Source: a virus. Taken from it: a stretch of DNA of 64,000 nucleotides. The stretch lies in the IMG/VR virus record IMGVR_UViG_3300021091_000012; one strand, given 5' to 3'. Below are positions 4,138 to 15,665 of this stretch, piece after piece. The notes below the pieces were generated by a model. The model was not told where the DNA came from and did no database searches. It saw nothing but the letters and a program-made list of their open reading frames with translations. The translations under genes were made by a program, and so were the position numbers. The first letter of the stretch is position 1; each line of letters starts with the position of its first letter.

Positions 4138-4818
4138 CTACGCTTGCTTAAGCAACTTTAATAAAGCACCGCGATTAATCCATCTAGATTTTGCGGTTCT
4201 GTTGGCTTCTGTGATTATATTTGACTGTGCTTGAAGAGCTTGTATTGTAGTGTCTGGCAGTCCTTGTTCCTTTATTACGCCACTAGATGGAGCAAACTGA
4301 GTAGACGTATGCTCATCATCAAAGAATGGAATTTGAAACTTGCGTCCTTTTACTTTAGTATAATAGTCGTCAGCATTATTCATATTAATAAAAACGTCTC
4401 TTTGCGCTAAAACCTGCCCATATCGATTGTCTGTGTATATTAAACTGAAAGTCATACCATCATATGTTTTGCCACCTTTAGTATCTGTAAGCTTTTCACC
4501 AAAGATTATAGACTCTTGACTAAATTGTTTTCCTAATTCTAGAGCTTCTTTTTTGGTTATATTTGGAATAAAAAAAGAATTTTCTGGACCACCATAGTGT
4601 CCTTTTACCTTCTTAAAGCCCAAATTCATTACACGTAATCGCTTTTCTAGCTCATTGTTTGCTTGTTTATTTGTAGCTGTGTCTGCGGCTTGTCCGTTTG
4701 GGTTTTCTGCTGTGAGGAAAGCTAGTGTTTGTACAGTAGGAACTAGTCCGCGCATAATATTAACTACACGAGCATATCCTGCTTCATTAAGTATCTGTTT
4801 AAGTTTTAAATTATTCAT
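4138..4818 (-). CDS. DUF3293-like protein with putative head-targeting N-terminus
   Basis: FLTAENPNG...N..L...G.Y..ENSF...QESI pattern; begins MNNLKLKQILNE. Confidence 0.5.
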   Translation of the reverse strand: MNNLKLKQILNEAGYARVVNIMRGLVPTVQTLAFLTAENPNGQAADTATNKQANNELEKRLRVMNLGFKKVKGHYGGPENSFFIPNITKKEALELGKQFSQESIIFGEKLTDTKGGKTYDGMTFSLIYTDNRYGQVLAQRDVFINMNNADDYYTKVKGRKFQIPFFDDEHTSTQFAPSSGVIKEQGLPDTTIQALQAQSNIITEANRTAKSRWINRGALLKLLKQA

Positions 4819-4829
4819 GTTAATTATAA

Positions 4830-7070
4830 TTATTGATGTCCTTCTCCAAAATTATCCGCAATGTTTGGCTCTGCTACTAGTCCAGTTGCTATTTGTACAG
4901 TATTCTCCATACATTCTTTTGTGATAGCACAAGCTCTCTGTGCATGTTCTGCTTTGGCGTTAATCACAAACTCGTCGTGAATCTGCAACATGATACATGC
5001 ATCTAGTCCTTCTTCCTTAAAGCGCTTGTGAATTTGTATTGCTGATCTATTCATAATGGATGCTGCTAGAGATTGTATTTGAAAGTTCTTACAGTTGTTA
5101 AGACCATTCTTGTACTCCATACGAAGCTTCATTAGCTGTTGAGTTTGTTCGGGTGTCTTGGCCATTCGCTTCATTTGAGAAAACGGACCTGGTTCAATAA
5201 GACTGTTCTCAAACTTCTCGTAGATTCTCTTTACTCGATCTAAGTGACGAATACGTCCAGTTTGGTTTTTAACATATCCAAACGTCTGAGCTTTAAGATG
5301 ACTATCGCTCATCCACTTTGCCAATTCAGGGAAACCTTCTAAGTATCCATCGATCATCTTCTGTGCTTCTCTAATCTCGATATTGAGCGATTGACCAATT
5401 TGCCACGCACCTGCTCCATAAGGAATAGCAAGTGCAATACTTTTTGCTCTTTGTCTAAGCTCTGGTCGCAAGTTCTTAACATAGTTGTCATCACTTTTTT
5501 TTGCCGACATGCCTCTAAGCTTAAACGCTTGAATAGCCACTCTACAATATAAATCCTCATTGTTGATAAATACGTTAATCAAATTTGGGTCATTACTTAC
5601 TGATGCGAACACTCGAGGCTCCAAAGACGACTGATCACAGATAATAAACTTTCTACCATCCTCAGCTTTCAAAAAGCTACGAATAATGTTGTTGTATCTA
5701 AGTACTAACTCACTTTGCTCTCCTTCTTCCAACACACGAGGTAGCTGTTGGCAGTCGGAGCTAAAACGACCTGAGGTAGTTCCATGTTGTTTGAAGTACC
5801 AGTAATATCTTCCGTCTTCATTTCCGTCTAGGAAACGATCGACGTATGCAGATTGTATCTTGTTGAGTTTGTTGTAGTCTCTTAGTTTAGCAGCCCAAGC
5901 ATGGTCTTTATGTATATGTTCGATGAAGTCATCGTCAAACTGATCTGTTCCTTTCTTTGTTTGGCTAATAGGCTTTATGCCCATATATTTAAAACACATC
6001 TCAGAAAGCTGTTGCTTACTACTAATATTGATGAATGCACCTTCTTTTTGCTTAAGGAGCTCAAGACTAATAGCAATCTTATCTTGATCATTAAGGTCCT
6101 TATCATCTCCTGTCTGCAAAAACTTCTGTCCAGCAGCTGGATCAATAAGCTGTGGTAGCTTCTCTTCAATTAGCTTTCCGTAATGTCCTCTTTTCTTTGG
6201 AGGATGGTTTGTTAATGCCTTAGCTACAACCCACTGTTGCACTTGACCATTCTTCATTAAGTCCGAAATGATTTCTTGCTCAAGTCTTAGAATATTTGCG
6301 TTGATGTCTTTCTTTGTTTTCTCGATTAGTGGAATATCTAACTCTGTACCGGTCTCTTCCATTTGTATAGTTACCGTCTTGTAGAGTGGCATCACCTCAT
6401 CGTTGAAAAAGAAATCCCACAATCCCTGCTCTTTAAGTACTGGCAGGTAGTATGTCATAACTCGAAGTGTCAAATCGGTATCTGCTGCTGCGTACTCTCC
6501 TAACAAGCTCATATTTGCTTTAAAAATTTCAAAGTTGGTCTTTGTAATACTACCACCATTCCTTTGAATAGACTCTTTTAGTTTTACTTGCTCTTCGTTA
6601 GCTTCTTTCTCAGCATCTAGTCCTAATTCATTTTGAATCTCAATAGCAATGTCTTTCAAACCAAAAGGACCATCCTCTTGTAGAGTATGGCGTAGTAACA
6701 TCGTATCACAATACAGATCATCTCGCAAATCAACACCATAAAAGTTTTTAGTGTACCGGACGTCAAACGAGGCGTTATGCATTACTAGCTTTTTGCCTTT
6801 TAGCATGTTGATAAGTTGGCGTGCAATGTCGTCGCACTTCTTGCCACCAATATAAGAATCTATAAGCGATTGACTATCAACATCCCAATATCTAGTTGGA
6901 AAGTAATAACCTTCTCCAATATCTGCAGAAACAGAAAAACCAATGATCATTCCATTTCTTGGATTAACACTAGTCGTCTCAGTATCGTATGCGATAATGT
7001 TTCCGTTCTTAATATAGTTGGCCAGCTCTACGACACCAGCTTCGTCGGTTATGATTTTATATTTTTTCAT
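4830..7070 (-). CDS. polA: family A DNA polymerase with 3'-5' exonuclease (replicative)
   Basis: ExoI DTETT, ExoII HNASFD, ExoIII YAAAD; TTSGRFSS; motif A CDQSSLEPR, motif B RQRAKSIALAIPYG, motif C QIHDE. Confidence 0.95.
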   Translation of the reverse strand: MKKYKIITDEAGVVELANYIKNGNIIAYDTETTSVNPRNGMIIGFSVSADIGEGYYFPTRYWDVDSQSLIDSYIGGKKCDDIARQLINMLKGKKLVMHNASFDVRYTKNFYGVDLRDDLYCDTMLLRHTLQEDGPFGLKDIAIEIQNELGLDAEKEANEEQVKLKESIQRNGGSITKTNFEIFKANMSLLGEYAAADTDLTLRVMTYYLPVLKEQGLWDFFFNDEVMPLYKTVTIQMEETGTELDIPLIEKTKKDINANILRLEQEIISDLMKNGQVQQWVVAKALTNHPPKKRGHYGKLIEEKLPQLIDPAAGQKFLQTGDDKDLNDQDKIAISLELLKQKEGAFINISSKQQLSEMCFKYMGIKPISQTKKGTDQFDDDFIEHIHKDHAWAAKLRDYNKLNKIQSAYVDRFLDGNEDGRYYWYFKQHGTTSGRFSSDCQQLPRVLEEGEQSELVLRYNNIIRSFLKAEDGRKFIICDQSSLEPRVFASVSNDPNLINVFINNEDLYCRVAIQAFKLRGMSAKKSDDNYVKNLRPELRQRAKSIALAIPYGAGAWQIGQSLNIEIREAQKMIDGYLEGFPELAKWMSDSHLKAQTFGYVKNQTGRIRHLDRVKRIYEKFENSLIEPGPFSQMKRMAKTPEQTQQLMKLRMEYKNGLNNCKNFQIQSLAASIMNRSAIQIHKRFKEEGLDACIMLQIHDEFVINAKAEHAQRACAITKECMENTVQIATGLVAEPNIADNFGEGHQ

Positions 7071-7133: not shown

Positions 7134-7439
7134 CTAAATTAATTCTTGTTCTAGTTGTTGTTTTACTTCTTCGCGTAGTAACTCTATTAATATATCCATT
7201 GCATCGCGACTGAATCTCCATCCGTTCGGACCTTCCGCACTTCGCAAGCAAACATCGTAGCATGTCCTCATAGCTAACAGCTCCTCTTCATTCTCGCAGA
7301 AGGAGGCTTTCTTCATTACGTCAGCCTTCATAGTAGCTCCGTGCATTATTCCACCGGTTTCCTTAACCCACTGCTTATACTCATCTTGATAGTTTTCGTG
7401 CAGCATTAATGCAGCTGCTTGTATTTGATCTTTATTCAT
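7134..7439 (-). CDS. hypothetical early protein
   Basis: ORF in an operon of small genes; A-rich start context. Confidence 0.6.
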   Translation of the reverse strand: MNKDQIQAAALMLHENYQDEYKQWVKETGGIMHGATMKADVMKKASFCENEEELLAMRTCYDVCLRSAEGPNGWRFSRDAMDILIELLREEVKQQLEQELI

Positions 7440-7534
7440 TTTTTATTAATTTTATATGATAAATAAGTAAACATTACAATACCAACCAAAACGACTGGTA
7501 CTACCAAAGCAGTTAAAATTTCTGTGTTATTCAT
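7436..7534 (-). CDS. 32-aa single-pass membrane microprotein
   Basis: Manual translation MNNTEILTALVVPVVLVGIVMFTYLSYKINKK; fills the gap between neighbours; its TGA overlaps the next ATG (ATGA). Confidence 0.6.
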   Translation of the reverse strand: MNNTEILTALVVPVVLVGIVMFTYLSYKINKK

Positions 7535-7551
7535 TGTTTTCAAGTTTCAAA

Positions 7552-7800
7552 CTAATTAGGACTCATCATTAAGAATTGTTTATATTGCTCATGCTCTGTA
7601 AGCATGATCATTTCTTGTTCATAGGTGAACTCTGTAGATAGAGTTGTTGTGTCCGATACTAACTCTACATAATACTCAGCCCACACTCTTCGAGCTTCCT
7701 CATAGAACTCTTGTGTAGTTTCTGACTCTACAAGCTCCATGTCGTAGGTCTTGATGATTTTTCCGTGATCATCTTTCACGTTGATTGTTACTTTATTCAT
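7552..7800 (-). CDS. hypothetical early protein
   Basis: ORF tightly packed in operon. Confidence 0.6.
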   Translation of the reverse strand: MNKVTINVKDDHGKIIKTYDMELVESETTQEFYEEARRVWAEYYVELVSDTTTLSTEFTYEQEMIMLTEHEQYKQFLMMSPN

Positions 7801-7803
7801 ATC

Positions 7804-8130
7804 TTATTGCATTTCAATAAACTGTAGTGGAACATTCCATCCTTGGTCAAATCGACTGGTAGCACCTTGTACTTGAACAACTCCACGAGTCTTGTTAATC
7901 TTGGTTAGTACTAGGTTCTTTCTGAAAGATAGTTGAGGGTGATTAACAAACACTGGAGATCCTTCTCTCAGTTCTTGTTTAGCTTGAGCAAGTTTTGAAG
8001 CTTTCCTAGTTTTTAGGATTCCAACAACGTAACTGTTGATAGCTCTTAATTCCTCTGTCGTCATAGCTCCTAGAGCCATCCTTGTTTCGTAATCGTTAAT
8101 GTCGATTGCTTTGTTGATTGTATTATTCAT
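7804..8130 (-). CDS. hypothetical early protein (C-terminal SH3/KOW-like beta region)
   Basis: Own promoter at 8151-8181; LREGSPVFV...LTKINKTRGVV...WNVP pattern. Confidence 0.6.
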   Translation of the reverse strand: MNNTINKAIDINDYETRMALGAMTTEELRAINSYVVGILKTRKASKLAQAKQELREGSPVFVNHPQLSFRKNLVLTKINKTRGVVQVQGATSRFDQGWNVPLQFIEMQ

Positions 8131-8150
8131 ATCTCTCTTAATTTTATATC

Positions 8151-8181
8151 TAAAGGTACGTACTTAATTCCATTTATGCAA
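8151..8181 (-). promoter_or_regulatory. TTG-N20-TACCTTTA early promoter
   Basis: GTTGCA...ACCTTTAG shared with 1333 and 8503. Confidence 0.75.
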
Positions 8182-8197
8182 CAGTTGTGCAAAACTT

Positions 8198-8479
8198 TTA
8201 GATGAAATATATATATCTGTAACCACAGTCATCATCGTAGTCCGCATATTCTTCAAGATCCAACTCAACCATGTCGTCAAACGATATTGGTAAGGATCTC
8301 CAGTATCTATATCGAATATATCGACGTGTGTGACCATAACCACCTGAAAACTCCAGGTCTTCGCGATCAACTCCCAATTCTACTAAAGCATTCTCAATCG
8401 ACTGTTCAGTCATGTCTTGTGGTAATTCACTTTCATGTCTCATCTTAACGTACTCTCCATTAATAATTTGGTAACTCAT
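8198..8479 (-). CDS. hypothetical acidic early protein
   Basis: Own promoter at 8503-8533. Confidence 0.6.
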   Translation of the reverse strand: MSYQIINGEYVKMRHESELPQDMTEQSIENALVELGVDREDLEFSGGYGHTRRYIRYRYWRSLPISFDDMVELDLEEYADYDDDCGYRYIYFI

Positions 8480-8594: not shown

Positions 8595-9419
8595 TTATAT
8601 AATTGTTATTGGTCGATGGCATTGTGAGCTGAGAAAGGCAACATTGCTCTTTACAAGATCCATATCAATATTGCTCATGTCGTAAGTCTCCAAAAAGCTA
8701 TGTGGAGTTGGGATACGAGTAGTATGGTCTACACTAAAGTCCTGTCCATGTGCAGCTGCTAGTACTGGGAACACTGAGTCAGTGCTTCGTATCATTGGAT
8801 GATCGTAGTATGCAAATTCAGTTGGATCTCCTTGACCTAGGCAGTGGATTGGCTTCTTGAGCATGTCTCTTTCCTTCAAATAATCATATGCTGCATGACG
8901 AGCTTCTTTAATGTATTGATCATCTTGATAAGTTCTAAGGTTGCTGAAGTGATCATCTGACATCCATGCACTCGGAATTGCAATCTTAGAGAATCCGATT
9001 ACATCAATCCAATCTTGATTAATACCCCACTCATAGGCTTCCAACCAATCCTCCTTAGTTTTACCTTGAGGACAGAAAAAGAGGTCTATGTGAAAAAGAT
9101 CAGACAACCCTTCTGCTCGCAGTCTTTCTCTAAAAGAGATGGCGTTAGCAATTGTAGCGTCCTTATCAAATAAAACATCTGGTGCAATTACTTCATCAGG
9201 TAACAACTCCTTGCAGATATCTATTAAAACGTCCTCAGTAACCAAAGCTCTTTCTGCTGCTGAGTTATCTAATGTGATCCAATAACCCTCTTCTTTGCGA
9301 GCTTTAATGAACTCTCGGTACTCAGGAAACTGCACCCATAAGTGAGCCAATGCAAAGATTCGATCTCCCAGCTTCATTGGCTCTAAGTTGCTAACTGGTG
9401 ATATAACGTAAAAATCCAT
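8595..9419 (-). CDS. dpdA: DpdA-like / TGT-fold DNA guanine transglycosylase
   Basis: TGT-like motifs LDNS, PD, PQG, IHCLG, RSTDS; located in a que-gene cluster. Subfamily not assignable by eye. Confidence 0.65.
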   Translation of the reverse strand: MDFYVISPVSNLEPMKLGDRIFALAHLWVQFPEYREFIKARKEEGYWITLDNSAAERALVTEDVLIDICKELLPDEVIAPDVLFDKDATIANAISFRERLRAEGLSDLFHIDLFFCPQGKTKEDWLEAYEWGINQDWIDVIGFSKIAIPSAWMSDDHFSNLRTYQDDQYIKEARHAAYDYLKERDMLKKPIHCLGQGDPTEFAYYDHPMIRSTDSVFPVLAAAHGQDFSVDHTTRIPTPHSFLETYDMSNIDMDLVKSNVAFLSSQCHRPITII

Positions 9420-9437
9420 TACTTATTGTGTATTTTT

Positions 9438-10439
9438 TTAACAAACTAAACTTCTATAAACTTCTACAGGAACATCAGATGTTAAGCCACCCTCAACTCC
9501 CTTCACAATAACCGATATAGCATCGTGTGAGTGTAGCGATTCCAAATGTGAACATATCACTTTAAAGTCTAAAACCCTTGAGTGTTCATCTAATCTCTGA
9601 TGTAACAGTCTAGCAGCATCCTCAACAAACTTCAGATTTGCACCATTTAGTTCAGCAAAAGCCTGCTCATCCTCACGTTTAACCATTACTTGTGTTTCTG
9701 TCTGTAAAGCTTCAATACATAGGTCTCTCACATCCTCAATCCAAATCATATCGTCAAACTCTATTGTAATTCGTGTTTTTGATCGTTGAGAGTGTGATAC
9801 AACTGCCTTATTGCGCTCCTCCATCGCTTGCATAGCCAGCTCAAAGCTGCAAGGACATGCTGATGAATATACAAAATCGAAGTGTAGGTATTTCTTGAGA
9901 TCACCGTTTTGTTTGTGATGAGCTTCTAACGATACGTTATAGTATTGGTAACCAGATAGACCACTTCTCAGTGAGTTTTGGATTATTGGAAATGAGAAGT
10001 TTAATATAATGTGTGCATCATATGATCCTAATTTCTCTTTGTACGATTTTAATACAGTCTCTAGTAAATCAATCGAGAACGTATTATCTTTGTATTCATA
10101 GAATGTTCTCATAATTCTTGACATGTTAATGCCCTTCTTCTCAGCCTCTAATGATACAGTTCCCGTTACAGAAGTCTCTAACTCGATCTCTCCGCCTTCC
10201 TTTAATTTATACTTAATAGGAAGTCTGAAATTATGAATACCTACTTGTTGTATTTTTACATGCGAACCTTGTATGTTAGAGGATGGTCCATTTTGTAAAT
10301 CGTGCAATGTACACACATACTCTTCATTGGATTTGAAATCCTTATCATACGATCTGTCTAGTTTGTTAGAAAGTGAATTAGGATTGTCTTTGTATGGGAT
10401 ACCGCAATCGTCTCCCAACCACTCGTAGTTTCCTGCCAT
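9438..10439 (-). CDS. folE2: GTP cyclohydrolase I type IB
   Basis: IQQVGI, KGINMSRI, SSACPCS, HSQRS, VKREDEQ, FVEDAAR, ESLHSHDA. Confidence 0.93.
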   Translation of the reverse strand: MAGNYEWLGDDCGIPYKDNPNSLSNKLDRSYDKDFKSNEEYVCTLHDLQNGPSSNIQGSHVKIQQVGIHNFRLPIKYKLKEGGEIELETSVTGTVSLEAEKKGINMSRIMRTFYEYKDNTFSIDLLETVLKSYKEKLGSYDAHIILNFSFPIIQNSLRSGLSGYQYYNVSLEAHHKQNGDLKKYLHFDFVYSSACPCSFELAMQAMEERNKAVVSHSQRSKTRITIEFDDMIWIEDVRDLCIEALQTETQVMVKREDEQAFAELNGANLKFVEDAARLLHQRLDEHSRVLDFKVICSHLESLHSHDAISVIVKGVEGGLTSDVPVEVYRSLVC

Positions 10440-10457
10440 AGTTGTTTTTTTGCTTTA

Positions 10458-10937
10458 TTAATAGTTGTGTATAATTTGTAACCTTTCTTCGAATATATTA
10501 AAAATCTTTTGACATTCCAACTCGATTGGCATATTGTCTGCTAAATCGAAAGGCTCAACGTCTTTTTCTGCATTGCGTGTTTCGTATCGTCGTTTACGTG
10601 TTTCGGTAGGAACTTCTATCCATATTAGTTCGCTTTTTGGATAATACTCCAGCACTTTTTCAACAATACTAGCTTGTCGGATCCCGTCAACAATAATTGT
10701 TTTTCTTTCAATGAGATTTTTTTCTATTGCTGTTGTTAATGCATCTAAGCAGCTAATAATCTCTTCAGCAATTCGCTCATCCAAATGCATTGTTTGTTGT
10801 AGTTTGTTGCGATCTTTGCTTTGTATTAAATCGCGAACAATATTAGATACCACTATACGATAGCTAGTAGTGTCATTAAAGGACGACTTTCCGCTACATA
10901 TTCGTCCAAACAAAAAAAGTATATCTGATTTTTTCAT
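10458..10937 (-). CDS. P-loop nucleoside/nucleotide-monophosphate kinase-like protein (probable start 10937)
   Basis: LFGRICSGKS Walker A, IIVDGIR Walker B-like, RxxR lid (ETRKRR); ATGA overlap with the upstream gene. Confidence 0.7.
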   Translation of the reverse strand: MKKSDILFLFGRICSGKSSFNDTTSYRIVVSNIVRDLIQSKDRNKLQQTMHLDERIAEEIISCLDALTTAIEKNLIERKTIIVDGIRQASIVEKVLEYYPKSELIWIEVPTETRKRRYETRNAEKDVEPFDLADNMPIELECQKIFNIFEERLQIIHNY

Positions 10938-11275
10938 AACTCTACTATACCAAAAAATTCTCCATCTTCCGACACTGAGCATCGACAAAGTCCAAAGTAA
11001 TTTAATAAATCTTCTGCTATCATTTCACAAGACATAGCTCCAAAGTTGCAGCAACCGTAGGCTGGATCGTACCAAGTGCTTGCAATATATTTCTTGATCT
11101 TGTGCTTGAAGTCAATGAACTCAATATCACGATCACCATGACTTACCTCTGCTCTACAAACAATCTGAAAGGTGTGTCTATGTAGATGTGCTAAATAATC
11201 TACGTGTGGCAAGTTGCAATCTGGCCAGTGATGCAATCCTTCTACATCTATTCTTATTTCTACAAACTTCTTCAT
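10934..11275 (-). CDS. dpdL: QueD-paralogous T-fold protein, DpdL-like (predicted CDG decarboxylase)
   Basis: HHWPDC, LAHLHRHTF (LxxxHRHxF), DRDIEF, SCEMIAE, VSEDGE; a separate canonical QueD is also present. Confidence 0.65.
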   Translation of the reverse strand: MKKFVEIRIDVEGLHHWPDCNLPHVDYLAHLHRHTFQIVCRAEVSHGDRDIEFIDFKHKIKKYIASTWYDPAYGCCNFGAMSCEMIAEDLLNYFGLCRCSVSEDGEFFGIVEL

Positions 11276-11757
11276 TACTTCTTATCTTTATCTTTTTGCC
11301 ATTGACCATCGTACAAATCCGCTGGAGTATTCTCTAGCATGATTATCTGAGCTACTCGTGCTCCTTTCTCAATGTGCATTTTATTGTTAACAAACATAAC
11401 TCCACCCATCTCATCTACTTCAAATCCTGGATCATAAACTCCAGATGTGATGATTGCTCCACAGCGTAGAATGGATGATCTGTGTCGAATAAATGCCGTC
11501 CTATTCTCAGGAAGCTTGCAGCCTTGATCGAACGTCAACGAATATACTCCCGGCTCGAGTGTAAAGATATATTTACCGGTTGGTGATAGGGTTGGTTGAA
11601 CTAGCTCGTAATCTTCTACGACGGTTTTGTCTTTGAGGACCATGCCTCCATAAACCCTATTGACTGCTTTTAGTGTGAGGTCGTAACCTACTTGAGCTTT
11701 TGCTCCTTTGTTATTTGTCTGTAGCAACTCGGCTACTTGATCTGCGTTTAATAACAT
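11275..11757 (-). CDS. trimeric dUTPase / dCTP-deaminase-fold protein
   Basis: GYDL, RSS, SGVYDPGF, GARVAQ, C-terminal YDGQWQ; the deaminase-type Glu after the DPG motif is not obvious. Confidence 0.8.
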   Translation of the reverse strand: MLLNADQVAELLQTNNKGAKAQVGYDLTLKAVNRVYGGMVLKDKTVVEDYELVQPTLSPTGKYIFTLEPGVYSLTFDQGCKLPENRTAFIRHRSSILRCGAIITSGVYDPGFEVDEMGGVMFVNNKMHIEKGARVAQIIMLENTPADLYDGQWQKDKDKK

Positions 11758-11777
11758 AACTTCTGATTGATTTTAAA

Positions 11778-11808
11778 TTAATATATGATAAGCTTTCGTA
11801 ATTTGCAA
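11778..11808 (-). promoter_or_regulatory. TTG-N20-TATATTAA promoter driving dut-dpdL-kinase-folE2-dpdA
   Basis: Exact 20-nt spacer. Confidence 0.6.
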
Positions 11809-11882
11809 CTACTAAATCTAGTAAGTCTAGGTGGCCTACATTGTCTGGGCATAGGCCTATAATATGTAACAGTTCGTGCATG

Positions 11883-12659
11883 CTAAACTCCTCTCTTTGT
11901 ATCGTAAGCAATAATATGATCTCGTCCAGTCATGTTGTAACCCTTTTCAGCACACATCTCAAAAACAATAGGATACATCTTGATAAGCTCTTCTCTTGTA
12001 TCGCCAGCTGGCATAATATACGTCTTTTCTTTTGGAATCAAAAGCTCTAGTCTAAAATTTTCTATTTCTTTAAGATTGGATTCTGTACCATCCCATACCG
12101 GCTTGTAGTGATAATCTGAATGGTAGGTCAATGTTTCTTTTATTGCTGATATGTTTAACCTAAACTTGTTATGCTGCGCAACCATCCTTTCATCCGTAAT
12201 CGTGCCTTGCGGCGTAGGAGTACCCACAACGGGAACGCTATTGCTAAACTTAGGACTAAGACTGATAAGCCCAATAGGATAATCGGTAGCAATAAAATGC
12301 GAGCCCTCAGTTTCAATTGTGATAAGAATGTCTTTTTCATGTGCAAAATGGGTTAGCTCGTTTACTAATGCTGGATGCATTGTAGGTGATCCACCAGTAA
12401 GCATCATCTCCTTAACGTGTGGATTCTCGTCATATATCCTTATGATATCATTAAACGTGAAGGTCCCCTTCTCTGGATGAATACTAGTGTACCAGCTGTC
12501 GCACCATCCTCCTTCTCCAAAGAAGCATCTGTGAGTGCATCCGGTTGTTCGTACTGCGATTGTTGGTCGGCCAAATCTTGACCCTTCTGATTGTACACAT
12601 CGATAGAGTTCAACTATCGGTAGTATTTTATTGTAATCTGTAACTCTTCCTGGTTTCAT
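11883..12659 (-). CDS. queE: 7-carboxy-7-deazaguanine synthase (radical SAM)
   Basis: ELYRCVQSEG, VRTTGC, CTHRC-x7-CDS, LTGGSP, IETEG, SLSPK. Confidence 0.92.
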   Translation of the reverse strand: MKPGRVTDYNKILPIVELYRCVQSEGSRFGRPTIAVRTTGCTHRCFFGEGGWCDSWYTSIHPEKGTFTFNDIIRIYDENPHVKEMMLTGGSPTMHPALVNELTHFAHEKDILITIETEGSHFIATDYPIGLISLSPKFSNSVPVVGTPTPQGTITDERMVAQHNKFRLNISAIKETLTYHSDYHYKPVWDGTESNLKEIENFRLELLIPKEKTYIMPAGDTREELIKMYPIVFEMCAEKGYNMTGRDHIIAYDTKRGV

Positions 12660-12660
12660 A

Positions 12661-12894
12661 TTAAAAAGGTAAATCGTCGTCTAAGATTTCTTGAACTGTT
12701 TGATTTGGTTTTTTAAAGTACTCATCCAAAAAAGTTGCTGGATACTTTAAAACTAAACCTGAGTAATTTGGATTCTCAACTTCGTGTGATGTTGCCCTTA
12801 TTCCCTTAGCTTTTGCAGCGGCATAAACTTCTTTTCCTAGTTTGGAACCAGCAGGTTTGCCAAGGTACTCGTACAGTGATAAATAGTTTTCCAT
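12661..12894 (-). CDS. hypothetical protein
   Basis: LSLYEYLGKPAG; ends DDLPF. Confidence 0.6.
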   Translation of the reverse strand: MENYLSLYEYLGKPAGSKLGKEVYAAAKAKGIRATSHEVENPNYSGLVLKYPATFLDEYFKKPNQTVQEILDDDLPF

Positions 12895-12961
12895 GTAACC
12901 TTATTTTGTGATTGTGTAAATTATTTTAACATCTCCTACTGTGCTTGTAGTAGTCCAGTAA

Positions 12962-13438
12962 TTATTCTTCATAGATACTTGAGTTTTTATCGTTTTCAAA
13001 ACATTCAACTTTAATGCACTTGCAACGTCCTGCATCTGTTTTAGACAACACGTCGTTGAATTTATCGTACACTAGCTTTGCACAAGACTCTGCTCCCATC
13101 TTCTCCATGAAGTGAACTTTAGCAAGTCCCATCTGGCCTAGCTGTTCAAATATATCTGCATACGGATCATCCTTTTGAATTAGTAAAGTGTGATCCCACA
13201 TATGATCCATCCACGACTTTAAGCCGTTGCCTACTGGAGCATCTTTGAAACCTCCATAGTCCACAATCCAATTCATATCATCTAGTTGATTTTCTTCTAG
13301 TGGTTCGTTGGATGCAAACCAAACTTTAAACTTTAGAGCATATCCGTGTAGCAATTCACAATGTGAGTGTGATGCTTTCCATTGACGGATTGCAACTGAG
13401 TAATTGTCAAATAACTTTGTTGAAATGTATCTACCCAT
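12962..13438 (-). CDS. queD: 6-carboxytetrahydropterin synthase
   Basis: CELLHGY (CxxxHGH-like), DYG, WDHTLL, AES, FEN T-fold motifs. Confidence 0.88.
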   Translation of the reverse strand: MGRYISTKLFDNYSVAIRQWKASHSHCELLHGYALKFKVWFASNEPLEENQLDDMNWIVDYGGFKDAPVGNGLKSWMDHMWDHTLLIQKDDPYADIFEQLGQMGLAKVHFMEKMGAESCAKLVYDKFNDVLSKTDAGRCKCIKVECFENDKNSSIYEE

Positions 13439-14300: not shown

Positions 14301-15665
14301 TTAATACTCCTCTTCTTCCGAGACTAACCCAGACATTCTGCCTAATTTAAGAGCAAAAGCTACACCCTGAATACCTGCCTTTTCGCGATAAGATGGAATT
14401 GTTAATCCTATGTTTGTAAAAATATGTGGCATAAGTCCTTCTGAAGTTGCTGGAAAGACTAGTGCGCTAAAGTCACCCTTACTGGGTGCTTCGTCGGCTA
14501 CTGAAGCATCTGTGACGATAAACATTTTACCTGCATCTGCTTCCATACTCATATAGTAATCTAAATACTTACCAGCAAACTCTGCTAAGAAGTTCTTTCG
14601 ATTTAATGTTCCGTCTTTTTTTAGATGGTTAGCAATCCACATCCAATTACTCGGTGACTTCCAATTTGACAGCGCACTACCAAAACCCACTGCCATAGCT
14701 CCTATCAACTCCTCCTGTGTTACCGGTTCGGAGTCTTCTTTTGTCTTCTCGATTAGTTGCCTATTCATCTCCTCCAACGCCGACATCCAACCTTTATTCC
14801 AGTCAGATCCATAACGTGCATCGTCCTCAATCACATTAAAAACACCCACTTCATCACCTCCCAGAGGCTTGGCGCCACCAGATAATGATACTCCCTTCAC
14901 GATGAGCCCCTTACTCTTAGCCAATTCCTCGTAGCCACGTTTAAATCCTGCCTGAGCTTCTCCAGAGCTTCCTAACCCTTTTTGGGAGCGAAGACGTTTG
15001 TTGAACCCACCCACCTCAAACGGCTGACCACCTACAACCAAGTCTCCGGACTTTGTAGGTCGTTGACCCCCTTTTAGGAGGACTGCTAATAACACCTCGA
15101 TTGTACCTAGTTGTGGTGTTGCACTCCAACGATACAATGCCAAGTCTCCTAGGGTGCTTGCAGATAATCCGGTATCTTTAAACGCATCCGATAACTTAAC
15201 AGGACTTCCTTGAAATACTGCAACATCTACCGTTGGATCTAAGAGATAGGTATGTAGCTTCATTTGATCAGTATCTTCAGCAAGTAGGATGTCCACAACC
15301 TCATCTGTGTGACTTTTGTCGTTACCAAGATGTTCCGCCACCGCCTGCTCGATAGGTACTTCAAAGTTTGCATTTCGACGAATGAGTTTCTGAATTTTTG
15401 TAATAGTTTTTGGAGACATTACAACTTTAGGATCTGACAGAGCAGCTATTAGTTGCTCTTTTGTCATTTGTACAACTTGTGACACCTCCTCAGGTTCTAC
15501 TTTCTTCTTCGCTTCGAGATTAAGTGGTTCATCAAATCCATACTCAGCCATAACCTCTTGAAGAACTTTTAGCTCTTTCTTGTTAGTGAACTTACCATCC
15601 TTCATTGTAGGATAGCCTTTTGGTAGTCTGTACGACCACTCTACTACTATTTCATCCCAATTCAT
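14301..15665 (-). CDS. hypothetical protein, possible degenerate restriction-endonuclease-fold domain
   Basis: EWSYRLPKGYP N-domain, LNLE linker, G..E..L...GDL...FEVG (Lys missing). Confidence 0.5.
   Translation of the reverse strand: MNWDEIVVEWSYRLPKGYPTMKDGKFTNKKELKVLQEVMAEYGFDEPLNLEAKKKVEPEEVSQVVQMTKEQLIAALSDPKVVMSPKTITKIQKLIRRNANFEVPIEQAVAEHLGNDKSHTDEVVDILLAEDTDQMKLHTYLLDPTVDVAVFQGSPVKLSDAFKDTGLSASTLGDLALYRWSATPQLGTIEVLLAVLLKGGQRPTKSGDLVVGGQPFEVGGFNKRLRSQKGLGSSGEAQAGFKRGYEELAKSKGLIVKGVSLSGGAKPLGGDEVGVFNVIEDDARYGSDWNKGWMSALEEMNRQLIEKTKEDSEPVTQEELIGAMAVGFGSALSNWKSPSNWMWIANHLKKDGTLNRKNFLAEFAGKYLDYYMSMEADAGKMFIVTDASVADEAPSKGDFSALVFPATSEGLMPHIFTNIGLTIPSYREKAGIQGVAFALKLGRMSGLVSEEEEY

Follow-up and report, generated by a model that had tools for sequence, protein, structure and literature searches.

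The 64,000-nt stretch of IMG/VR virus record IMGVR_UViG_3300021091_000012 (the window, to which all sequence results below refer, and probably part of a genome of ~160 kb) contains a gene cluster of the kind with which phages replace guanine in their DNA by 7-deazaguanine (DG). The cluster, at positions 8595-13438, is a compact operon that lies on the minus strand throughout, with small intergenic gaps. Its genes are listed here in the order of transcription, which runs from QueD through a 77-aa (amino acid) open reading frame (ORF), QueE, a Dcd/Dut-fold protein, DpdL, a P-loop kinase-like protein and FolE2 to DpdA3.

12962..13438, minus strand: QueD, 6-carboxytetrahydropterin synthase (PF01242, E 2e-11; phrog_2389, E 5e-32)
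12661..12894, minus strand: 77-aa ORF between queD and queE, no Pfam, NCBIfam or PHROG match
11883..12659, minus strand: QueE, 7-carboxy-7-deazaguanine synthase, radical SAM (phrog_2076, E 6e-48; TIGR03365, E 6e-14)
11275..11757, minus strand: Dcd/Dut-fold nucleoside triphosphate (NTP) pyrophosphatase (PF22769, E 3e-12; PF00692)
10934..11275, minus strand: DpdL, 113 aa, probable QueD paralogue and proposed decarboxylase of 7-carboxy-7-deazaguanine (phrog_17812, E 3e-21; homology to phiST DpdL)
10458..10937, minus strand: nucleoside monophosphate (NMP)-kinase-like P-loop protein (AAA_18, E 8e-7; Walker A GRICSGKSS)
9438..10439, minus strand: FolE2, GTP cyclohydrolase IB (PF02649, E 5e-70, 236 bits; NF010200, 274.4 bits, cutoff 215)
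8595..9419, minus strand: DpdA3 transglycosylase, 274 aa, predicted minimal tRNA-guanine transglycosylase (TGT) barrel (phrog_20335, E 3e-50)
4830..7070, minus strand, context: family A DNA polymerase (PolA) with 3'-5' exonuclease (PF00476, E 2e-62; PF01612, E 1e-13)

The Dut-fold stop and the dpdL start overlap by 1 nt, the dpdL stop and the kinase ATG overlap as ATGA, and gaps of 18 nt separate the kinase gene from FolE2 and FolE2 from DpdA3. The original prediction, made from the letters alone, had placed queD, queE, a GTP cyclohydrolase I, a TGT-fold gene and a second QueD-like gene in this span. All five lie where predicted, on the minus strand, according to profile matches and a fold model, with one correction: the cyclohydrolase is not of type IA but FolE2, or type IB (NF010200 above cutoff). 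The set needed for 7-carboxy-7-deazaguanine (CDG), namely GTP cyclohydrolase I (type IB), QueD and QueE, is complete in the operon. Two genes of the span had not been listed, the Dcd/Dut-fold gene at 11275-11757 and the NMP-kinase-like gene at 10458-10937.

The absence of queC, queF and Gat-queC from the window, also claimed beforehand, is borne out by tblastn, a motif scan and a QueC hidden Markov model (HMM). Phage QueC, QueF and DpdN queries give a best tblastn E value of 1.3 against the window, where a FolE-IA query finds nothing, and the SGGxDS PP-loop motif is missing from all six frames. An HMM built from seven phage QueCs, which recovers five of five held-out loci at E <= 5e-38, reaches a best E of 2.5 among the 519 six-frame ORFs of the window. 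QueC is also missing from all five related IMG/VR records searched, four of them at least 96% complete (DpdA3 70-77% identical), by a search that recovered it from 14 of 14 control genomes. In the phage records checked, DpdL and QueC are for the most part mutually exclusive: phages phiST, MA9V-3 and ACP17 have DpdL and no QueC, and QueC occurs in all four DpdA3 phages without DpdL (immuto, BSP7, CP220 and Youna2). Neither gene was found in Aeromonas phage Ahp1. Vibrio phage D479, which has DpdL and DpdA3, encodes ~100 kb from its cluster a 278-aa ORF whose similarity to the QueC model is confined to the C-terminal third of that model (W04 153872-154066, E 6e-9).

The names DpdA3 and DpdL come from the search for the enzymes behind the replacement of dG by the DG deoxynucleoside, dDG, in phage phiST (Hutinet, Cui et al., NAR 2023, PMC10516641). 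By mass spectrometry, phiST DNA contains 302,000 dDG per 10^6 nt; neither a dG peak nor dCDG, the CDG counterpart, is seen, and the DNA is resistant to restriction at sites that contain G. In phi19:2 and phi13:1 DNA dDG was measured as well (PMC10516641). Otherwise it is known only from Vibrio phage VP1 (bioRxiv 10.1101/2025.10.29.685425). The phiST genes follow the order QueD, QueE, FolE, MazG-like CGPG_00068, DpdL CGPG_00067, P-loop CGPG_00066 and DpdA3 CGPG_00065. The window has QueD, QueE, an NTP pyrophosphatase, DpdL, a P-loop protein and DpdA3 in that same order, with a polymerase nearby and, as in phiST, without QueC. There are differences: FolE of phiST is type IA, whereas FolE2 stands here between the kinase and DpdA3, and the pyrophosphatase is MazG-like there and of the Dcd/Dut fold here, with no sequence similarity between them. 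Moreover, phiST is a 79-kb Cbastvirus, unlike the immuto-like myovirus of ~160 kb considered here.

Among cultured phages, Chryseobacterium phage MA9V-3 (PV245944) has the module closest to this one, with its genes labelled hypothetical. It shares the order of Dut-like protein, DpdL, kinase and DpdA3 and the lack of QueC, but has FolE-IA, a DpdL fused behind a Cys-rich N-terminal domain, and recA and thyA interleaved in the cluster. Flavobacterium phage vB_FspM_immuto (immuto) has a related backbone (QueE 77% at the DNA level; PolA, GroEL and divPolA1 common to both), the same order QueD, small ORF, QueE ... DpdA3 ... PolA, and a replacement that is 100% in immuto. It differs by having QueC, QueF, the formyltransferase DpdN, a phosphoribosyltransferase, a PRA-PH/MazG-like hydrolase and a different kinase, and by lacking DpdL.

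Because of the orthology with phiST, the DpdL/QueC pattern and the lack of QueC in relatives, a prediction of dDG, and not of dCDG or of preQ0 in DNA (dPreQ0), is well founded. By its gene content the operon is very probably a phiST-type dDG module in which DpdA3 would install DG. The original prediction had named dCDG as an alternative to dDG; phiST orthology speaks for dDG, and with dDG the sole form seen in phiST, dCDG is unlikely. The dDG system as such is already published and not new, and the cluster of the window is one more member of it.

By sequence, the DpdA3 of the window belongs to the phiST branch and not to the immuto/CP220 branch. It is 40% identical to phiST CGPG_00065 over 89% of its length (E 3e-48), 44% to its MA9V-3 counterpart and 27% to that of immuto, with weaker matches to DpdA3 of Campylobacter phages. 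The protein matches nothing in Pfam and NCBIfam, and sequence and profile searches of the PDB yield only a marginal DpdA match (E 0.032). An AlphaFold model was built from a 103-sequence alignment (pLDDT 94.4), and the 50 top matches in a Foldseek search of the PDB with this model are, without exception, tRNA-guanine transglycosylases (E ~1e-7). In VIA-align, which is independent of Foldseek, the scores of the four top chains are Z 16.9 for ArcTGT 1iq8, 16.6 for DpdA 7ui4, 15.7 for bacterial TGT 3unt and 15.2 for QTRT2 6fv5, while generic TIM barrels reach Z <= 14.4, a modest margin for the TGT fold. A structure search of 8595-9419 thus finds the TGT fold that had been predicted, and at the level of the model a TGT-type (beta/alpha)8 barrel is confirmed.

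DpdA3 has in common with bacterial DpdA and TGT (7ui4, 1iq8, Zymomonas mobilis TGT) the TIM-barrel TGT fold (Z 15.7-16.9), the Asp motifs LDN and SxDS and the HLLG..P.E loop. In a profile comparison, the HxLG..P.E..SxDS block of the family aligns with the same block of DpdA 7ui4, where SxDS reads SIDS. Across 103 diverse homologues D51 (LDN) never varies and D214 (SxDS) hardly does; we take these residues to be the equivalents of the catalytic aspartates D102 and D280 of TGT. Unlike its bacterial counterparts, DpdA3 lacks both the Zn subdomain and a Pfam TGT match: no CxCxxC...H subdomain is found in it, and its four Cys are scattered, none of them conserved. The family measures ~265 aa (274 here) versus 370-580 aa in TGT, DpdA and ArcTGT, being ~100-300 residues shorter, and the protein of the window is strongly acidic (pI 4.76, net charge -20). 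For a DNA-acting phage DpdA, a positively charged DNA-binding surface has been described (bioRxiv 10.1101/2025.10.29.685425). Acidity and gene context together raise doubt as to whether a polynucleotide would be the substrate of DpdA3.

The DpdA3 family is abundant, with 545 close homologues and 1181 representative clusters; when IMG/VR was scanned with P0177 and P0217, two distant members, there were no matches. Long forms of 465-568 aa were considered as enzyme fusions, an idea that was dropped as they proved to contain LAGLIDADG homing endonucleases or an intein. In metagenomic P0185 an intein with HNH is inserted after about residue 148, and P0127, P0129, P0190, P0278 and P0279 carry N- or C-terminal LAGLIDADG homing endonuclease domains. 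Such invasion by selfish elements is characteristic of phage replication genes that are essential and highly conserved.

In DpdL, the predicted LAHLHRHTF is present at residues 28-36 of the translation of 10934-11275 and fits the LxxxHRHxF signature of the family. The protein is 37.5% identical to phiST CGPG_00067 (E 1e-13) and 49.5% to its MA9V-3 homologue, and contains all 17 residues invariant in the family. Among these are four His, four Glu and the Cys of an SCE motif; those of the window include H15, L28, H32, R33, H34, F36, H46, C83, E84, E103 and E106. In the DpdL family the catalytic Cys of QueD is replaced by Leu, and the invariant C83 is a separate Cys in the S-C-E motif; the accessible text of PMC10516641 makes no mention of it. 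There is no Pfam or NCBIfam hit and no match to PDB sequences in single-sequence and profile searches. A relation to the QueD T-fold appears as a weak match to TIGR03112 (E 0.0015) and as a weakly positive hhalign comparison of the DpdL and phage QueD alignments (E 3.5e-4, probability 37%); for phiST DpdL, homology to QueD is given by HHpred at 99.9% (PMC10516641). The assignment of DpdL as a CDG decarboxylase is a published proposal.

Some DpdL loci have features of their own. In Acidovorax phage ACP17, which shows no DpdA3-type match and no kinase adjacent, gp124, directly upstream of DpdL (L044 5972-7000), has weak matches to glycosyltransferase families 1/4 (E ~2e-4). In MA9V-3, DpdL forms the C-terminal third of the 293-aa XQU63047 (L002 4647-5528), whose N-terminal 171 aa contain paired CxxC motifs and have no Pfam match. 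This N-terminus was tried as a homologue of the Dut-fold protein of the window and dropped for lack of similarity.

The genes for base synthesis are conserved to different degrees. QueE is 62% identical to that of phiST and 66% to that of immuto. QueD has CELLHGY in place of the canonical CxxxHGH zinc motif, a variant common to phiST and immuto QueD, and all three proteins contain a ~30-residue insertion relative to QueD of Bacillus phages. The 77-aa ORF is kept at the same position in many related IMG/VR loci (40-74% identity) and shows no similarity to its positional counterpart in immuto, gp215.

The assignment of FolE2 is at equivalog level (NF010200), FolE type IA being usual in phage clusters. 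FolE-IA fills this slot in 32 of 32 informative related loci, FolE2 in none of them, and phiST, MA9V-3 and immuto have FolE-IA too. Among 50,697 deposited phage records FolE2 is nearly absent (three weak matches). The view that it is unique among viruses is nevertheless rejected, 25 IMG/VR contigs carrying FolE2 (51-84% identity), mostly within QueC-positive deazaguanine clusters. In the genome collection, one match, at 79%, is a 9.4-kb contig binned in a metagenome-assembled genome of Flavobacteriaceae, with QueE and a phosphoribosyltransferase alongside, and is probably phage. Otherwise, the closest FolE2 among the genome-collection matches listed is from marine Rhodobacterales, at ~57%. The replacement of FolE by FolE2 looks like a cassette exchange between related phages and a minor variant; the genome is mosaic in this respect, since the nearest viral relatives of its FolE2 sit mostly in QueC-positive clusters. 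In several QueC-positive contigs a phosphoribosyltransferase like immuto gp211 (immuto copy at L036 10725-11120) stands beside FolE2. In the dDG-type IMG/VR relatives L014, L018, L020, L024 and L027, a phosphoribosyltransferase 52-82% identical to gp211 lies upstream of the Dut-like gene; none is found in the window. This enzyme might salvage the released guanine.

The two genes that flank dpdL deserve separate attention. The AlphaFold model of the P-loop protein (pLDDT 89.9) retrieves adenylate and UMP-CMP kinases as top Foldseek matches (E ~1e-6). GRICSGKS, DGIRQ, R115/R118/R122 and D127 do not vary among 25 homologues, the arginines being of the LID type. Fold and motifs satisfy what is expected of an NMP-kinase fold, and the modelled protein is adenylate/UMP-CMP-kinase-like. 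It is 32% identical to phiST CGPG_00066 (E 8e-15) and 37% to MA9V-3 XQU63046. In PMC10516641, CGPG_00066 is stated to be without homologues in other deazaguanine phages. By sequence it clearly has them, contrary to this 2023 statement, in the window and in MA9V-3. The Dcd/Dut-fold protein matches PF22769 at 47 bits (cutoff 27), PF00692 at 28 bits (cutoff 22) and, below the family cutoff, NF002598 (archaeal-type dUTPase) at E 3e-25, and shares 38% identity with its MA9V-3 counterpart in that slot. The catalytic Glu of dCTP deaminase is presumably absent from it. The MazG-like protein of phiST was considered as a homologue of this protein, and dropped as no similarity is found.

Kinases and hydrolases also accompany DpdA3 elsewhere. 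A P-loop nucleotide kinase is encoded within three genes of DpdA3 in all nine cultured-phage lineages inspected, and an NTP phosphohydrolase of one of three folds (Dcd/Dut, MazG/PRA-PH or HD) lies near it in seven of the nine.

This phage and MA9V-3: AAA_18-like kinase; hydrolase of the Dcd/Dut fold
phiST: AAA_18-like kinase; MazG hydrolase
Vibrio D479 and Aeromonas Ahp1: T4 gp1-type deoxynucleoside monophosphate kinase directly after DpdA3; Dcd-fold protein directly after the kinase
Campylobacter IBB35 and CP220: AAA_28 kinase; immediately ahead of DpdA3, an HD phosphohydrolase with a fused AAA_33 kinase domain
immuto: kinase gp203, annotated 'thymidylate kinase'; PRA-PH/MazG-like gp208, plus a phosphoribosyltransferase
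Bacillus BSP7 and Weizmannia Youna2: TMPK-like Walker-A protein; no hydrolase identified

In CP220 (L042 3862-6355), DpdA3 lies in a three-gene island among tail genes, between gp055 (the HD and AAA_33 fusion) and gp057 (AAA_28). The possibility that the kinases of different lineages are orthologues was dropped after hhalign showed no relation beyond the P-loop. Since the kinases are not detectably homologous, and hence analogous recruits, their association with DpdA3 is functional and not inherited. In metagenomic P0179 (408 aa), kinase and transglycosylase form a single chain: its N-terminal part is DpdA3 (31% identity, E 2e-32) and its C-terminal domain belongs to the kinase family of the window (hhalign 89%, E 2e-6). 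P0179 is the sole kinase fusion among the long DpdA3 forms examined.

In phage T4, complete pre-replicative replacement of cytosine by hydroxymethylcytosine is achieved by the dCTPase gp56, the dCMP hydroxymethylase gp42 and the dNMP kinase gp1. The operon of the window would offer an analogous triad of a pyrophosphatase for the canonical dNTP, a base-modifying enzyme and a dNMP kinase. The analogy would not extend to the chemistry, since the T4 reaction is thymidylate-synthase-like and a TGT-fold base exchange would apply here. Every measured DpdA3 phage, phiST, immuto and CP220 among them, shows 100% replacement, and full replacement is reported in DpdA3 phages only (PMC10516641); in CP220 the base is dADG, at 100%. 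A triad of this kind would explain why complete substitution is confined to DpdA3 phages. No dDG appeared in E. coli when DpdL and DpdA were coexpressed, whether taken from phiST or from ACP17 (PMC10516641). Nucleotide-level exchange would explain why DpdA3 and DpdL failed without their partner genes. A literature search found no paper that places DpdA3 action at the nucleotide level.

The proposed pathway begins with established family functions. FolE2 would convert GTP into dihydroneopterin triphosphate, QueD would turn this into CPH4, and QueE would form CDG from CPH4. Without QueC no preQ0 would be made, and CDG would be converted into DG, putatively by DpdL, for DpdA3 to exchange against guanine. 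For the exchange itself, gene context suggests a route through the nucleotide pool. The pyrophosphatase would hydrolyze dGTP to dGMP, DpdA3 would swap the base on this mononucleotide, and the kinase would re-phosphorylate dDGMP. Host nucleoside diphosphate kinase would complete the synthesis of dDGTP, which the adjacent phage PolA would incorporate. By analogy with phiST, virion DNA would carry dDG for all or nearly all dG, and dDG would block restriction enzymes with G in their sites.

The identity of the final base can be weighed against two other readings. In one, QueC encoded beyond the window, or QueC of the host, supplies preQ0, and the DNA contains dPreQ0 or a derivative. The window is indeed 64 kb of a genome of probably 160 kb, and the ~100 kb outside it, the main caveat to the prediction, could encode QueC; in the relative immuto, queC stands ~10 kb from the cluster, and the FolE2 of the window is most like copies from QueC-positive viral clusters. 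These points count against the dDG reading, but QueC is lacking in the 64 kb and in the four near-complete relatives, the window contains no QueF, DpdN or Gat-QueC, and DpdA3 is of the phiST branch, with 27% identity only to immuto. With the near exclusion of QueC by DpdL in the records checked, a preQ0-derived base is very improbable. The other reading denies DpdL its decarboxylase activity and has the DNA carry dCDG, or else a base modified further by DpdL and small uncharacterised ORFs. It draws on the fact that decarboxylation by DpdL has been proposed and never reconstituted (PMC10516641), which is a weakness of the dDG prediction as well. It could also accommodate the invariant Cys (SCE) and the four invariant His of DpdL and the uncharacterised ORFs inside the operon and next to it (12661-12894 and 7134-8479). 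However, phiST has the same core genes and shows dDG without dCDG (PMC10516641), and no other candidate decarboxylase or tailoring enzyme is found in the operon, and this reading too is very improbable.

The installation route is more evenly contested. That DpdA3 acts as a nucleotide-level base exchanger, with replacement occurring before replication through the nucleotide pool, is favored without proof and has about an even chance of being correct. It is favored because the genes for the pyrophosphatase and the kinase are translationally coupled to dpdL and such genes accompany DpdA3 in other lineages. The competing explanation, somewhat less probable and still a serious contender, is the published post-replicative swap, in which the P-loop protein would be an ATP-hydrolysing helper like DpdB and the Dut-fold protein an ordinary dUTPase clustered by chance or through co-expression. 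Several observations support this explanation and weigh against a nucleotide substrate. All characterised DpdA and TGT enzymes use polynucleotides, and post-replicative insertion was inferred for all DpdA subfamilies by Hutinet et al. in 2023 (PMC10516641). Bacterial DpdA needs its ATPase partner DpdB to insert the base into DNA (PMC10164549), and a linked ATP-binding protein therefore need not imply nucleotide substrates. Some DpdA3 loci have no kinase nearby, with no Walker-A ORF within 3.5 kb of immuto-type DpdA3 in IMG/VR loci L133, L135, L137 and L146. The Dcd/Dut-fold gene of the cluster is the sole dUTPase-fold gene in four related near-complete genomes, and may for this reason be a housekeeping dUTPase. 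That a second canonical dUTPase might leave the one in the cluster available for a specialised function had been considered; the relatives carry one copy, the test does not discriminate, and the idea was dropped. On the other hand, DpdB has a ParB fold and not that of an NMP kinase (PMC10164549), whereas the P-loop protein here models as an adenylate/UMP-CMP kinase. A helper and a chance neighbor would also leave aside the recurrence, beside DpdA3, of kinases from several unrelated subfamilies and of phosphohydrolases of three folds, the restriction of 100% replacement to DpdA3 phages, and a transglycosylase without the Zn subdomain that is, here, strongly acidic.

The surroundings of the operon are those of a phage replication and nucleotide-metabolism region. 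Downstream of DpdA3, four small ORFs are followed by PolA, which likewise lies 3' of DpdA3 in immuto, BSP7, Youna2 and IMG/VR relatives. Other genes of the window encode a GroEL-like chaperonin, a class II ribonucleotide reductase, a DnaB-like helicase, a 5'-3' exonuclease, RecA and a gp32-like protein. At the DNA level the window shows distant kinship with immuto, and the best match in the deposited phage collection is 77% over 278 nt. In IMG/VR, 33 loci have a DpdA3 69-87% identical to that of the window, several of them on contigs that measure 157-166 kb and bear terminal repeats. The order Dut-like protein, DpdL, kinase, FolE and DpdA3 is kept in every sufficiently flanked relative, usually with PolA next. 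The source is probably an uncultured immuto-like myovirus of ~160 kb.

Two further ORFs lie close to these genes. Just upstream of the operon, 14301-15665 encodes 454 aa with no Pfam, NCBIfam or PHROG match and is kept at the corresponding place in related IMG/VR contigs (27-66%). Next to PolA, 4138-4818 encodes a 226-aa protein that matches DUF3293 (E 3e-14) and, below threshold, the S-adenosylmethionine lyase family (E 1e-4); it may provide a second anti-restriction function.

With this operon the dDG family, abundant in aquatic metagenomes, gains one more uncultured immuto-like phage. The cluster is useful for annotation because DpdA3 and DpdL have no Pfam model. Bacteria have anti-phage glycosylases, newly described, that target fully dDG-substituted genomes (bioRxiv 10.1101/2025.10.29.685425), which gives ecological value to spotting such genomes from sequence. 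The company of kinases and hydrolases that DpdA3 keeps is a more interesting point than the cluster itself, and the route it suggests is testable on cultured phages. If the swap acts on free nucleotides, failed heterologous reconstitutions could be fixed by adding the kinase and the pyrophosphatase, enzymatic access to 7-deaza-dGTP analogues would be gained, and the post-replicative model for fully substituted 7-deazaguanine genomes would need revision.

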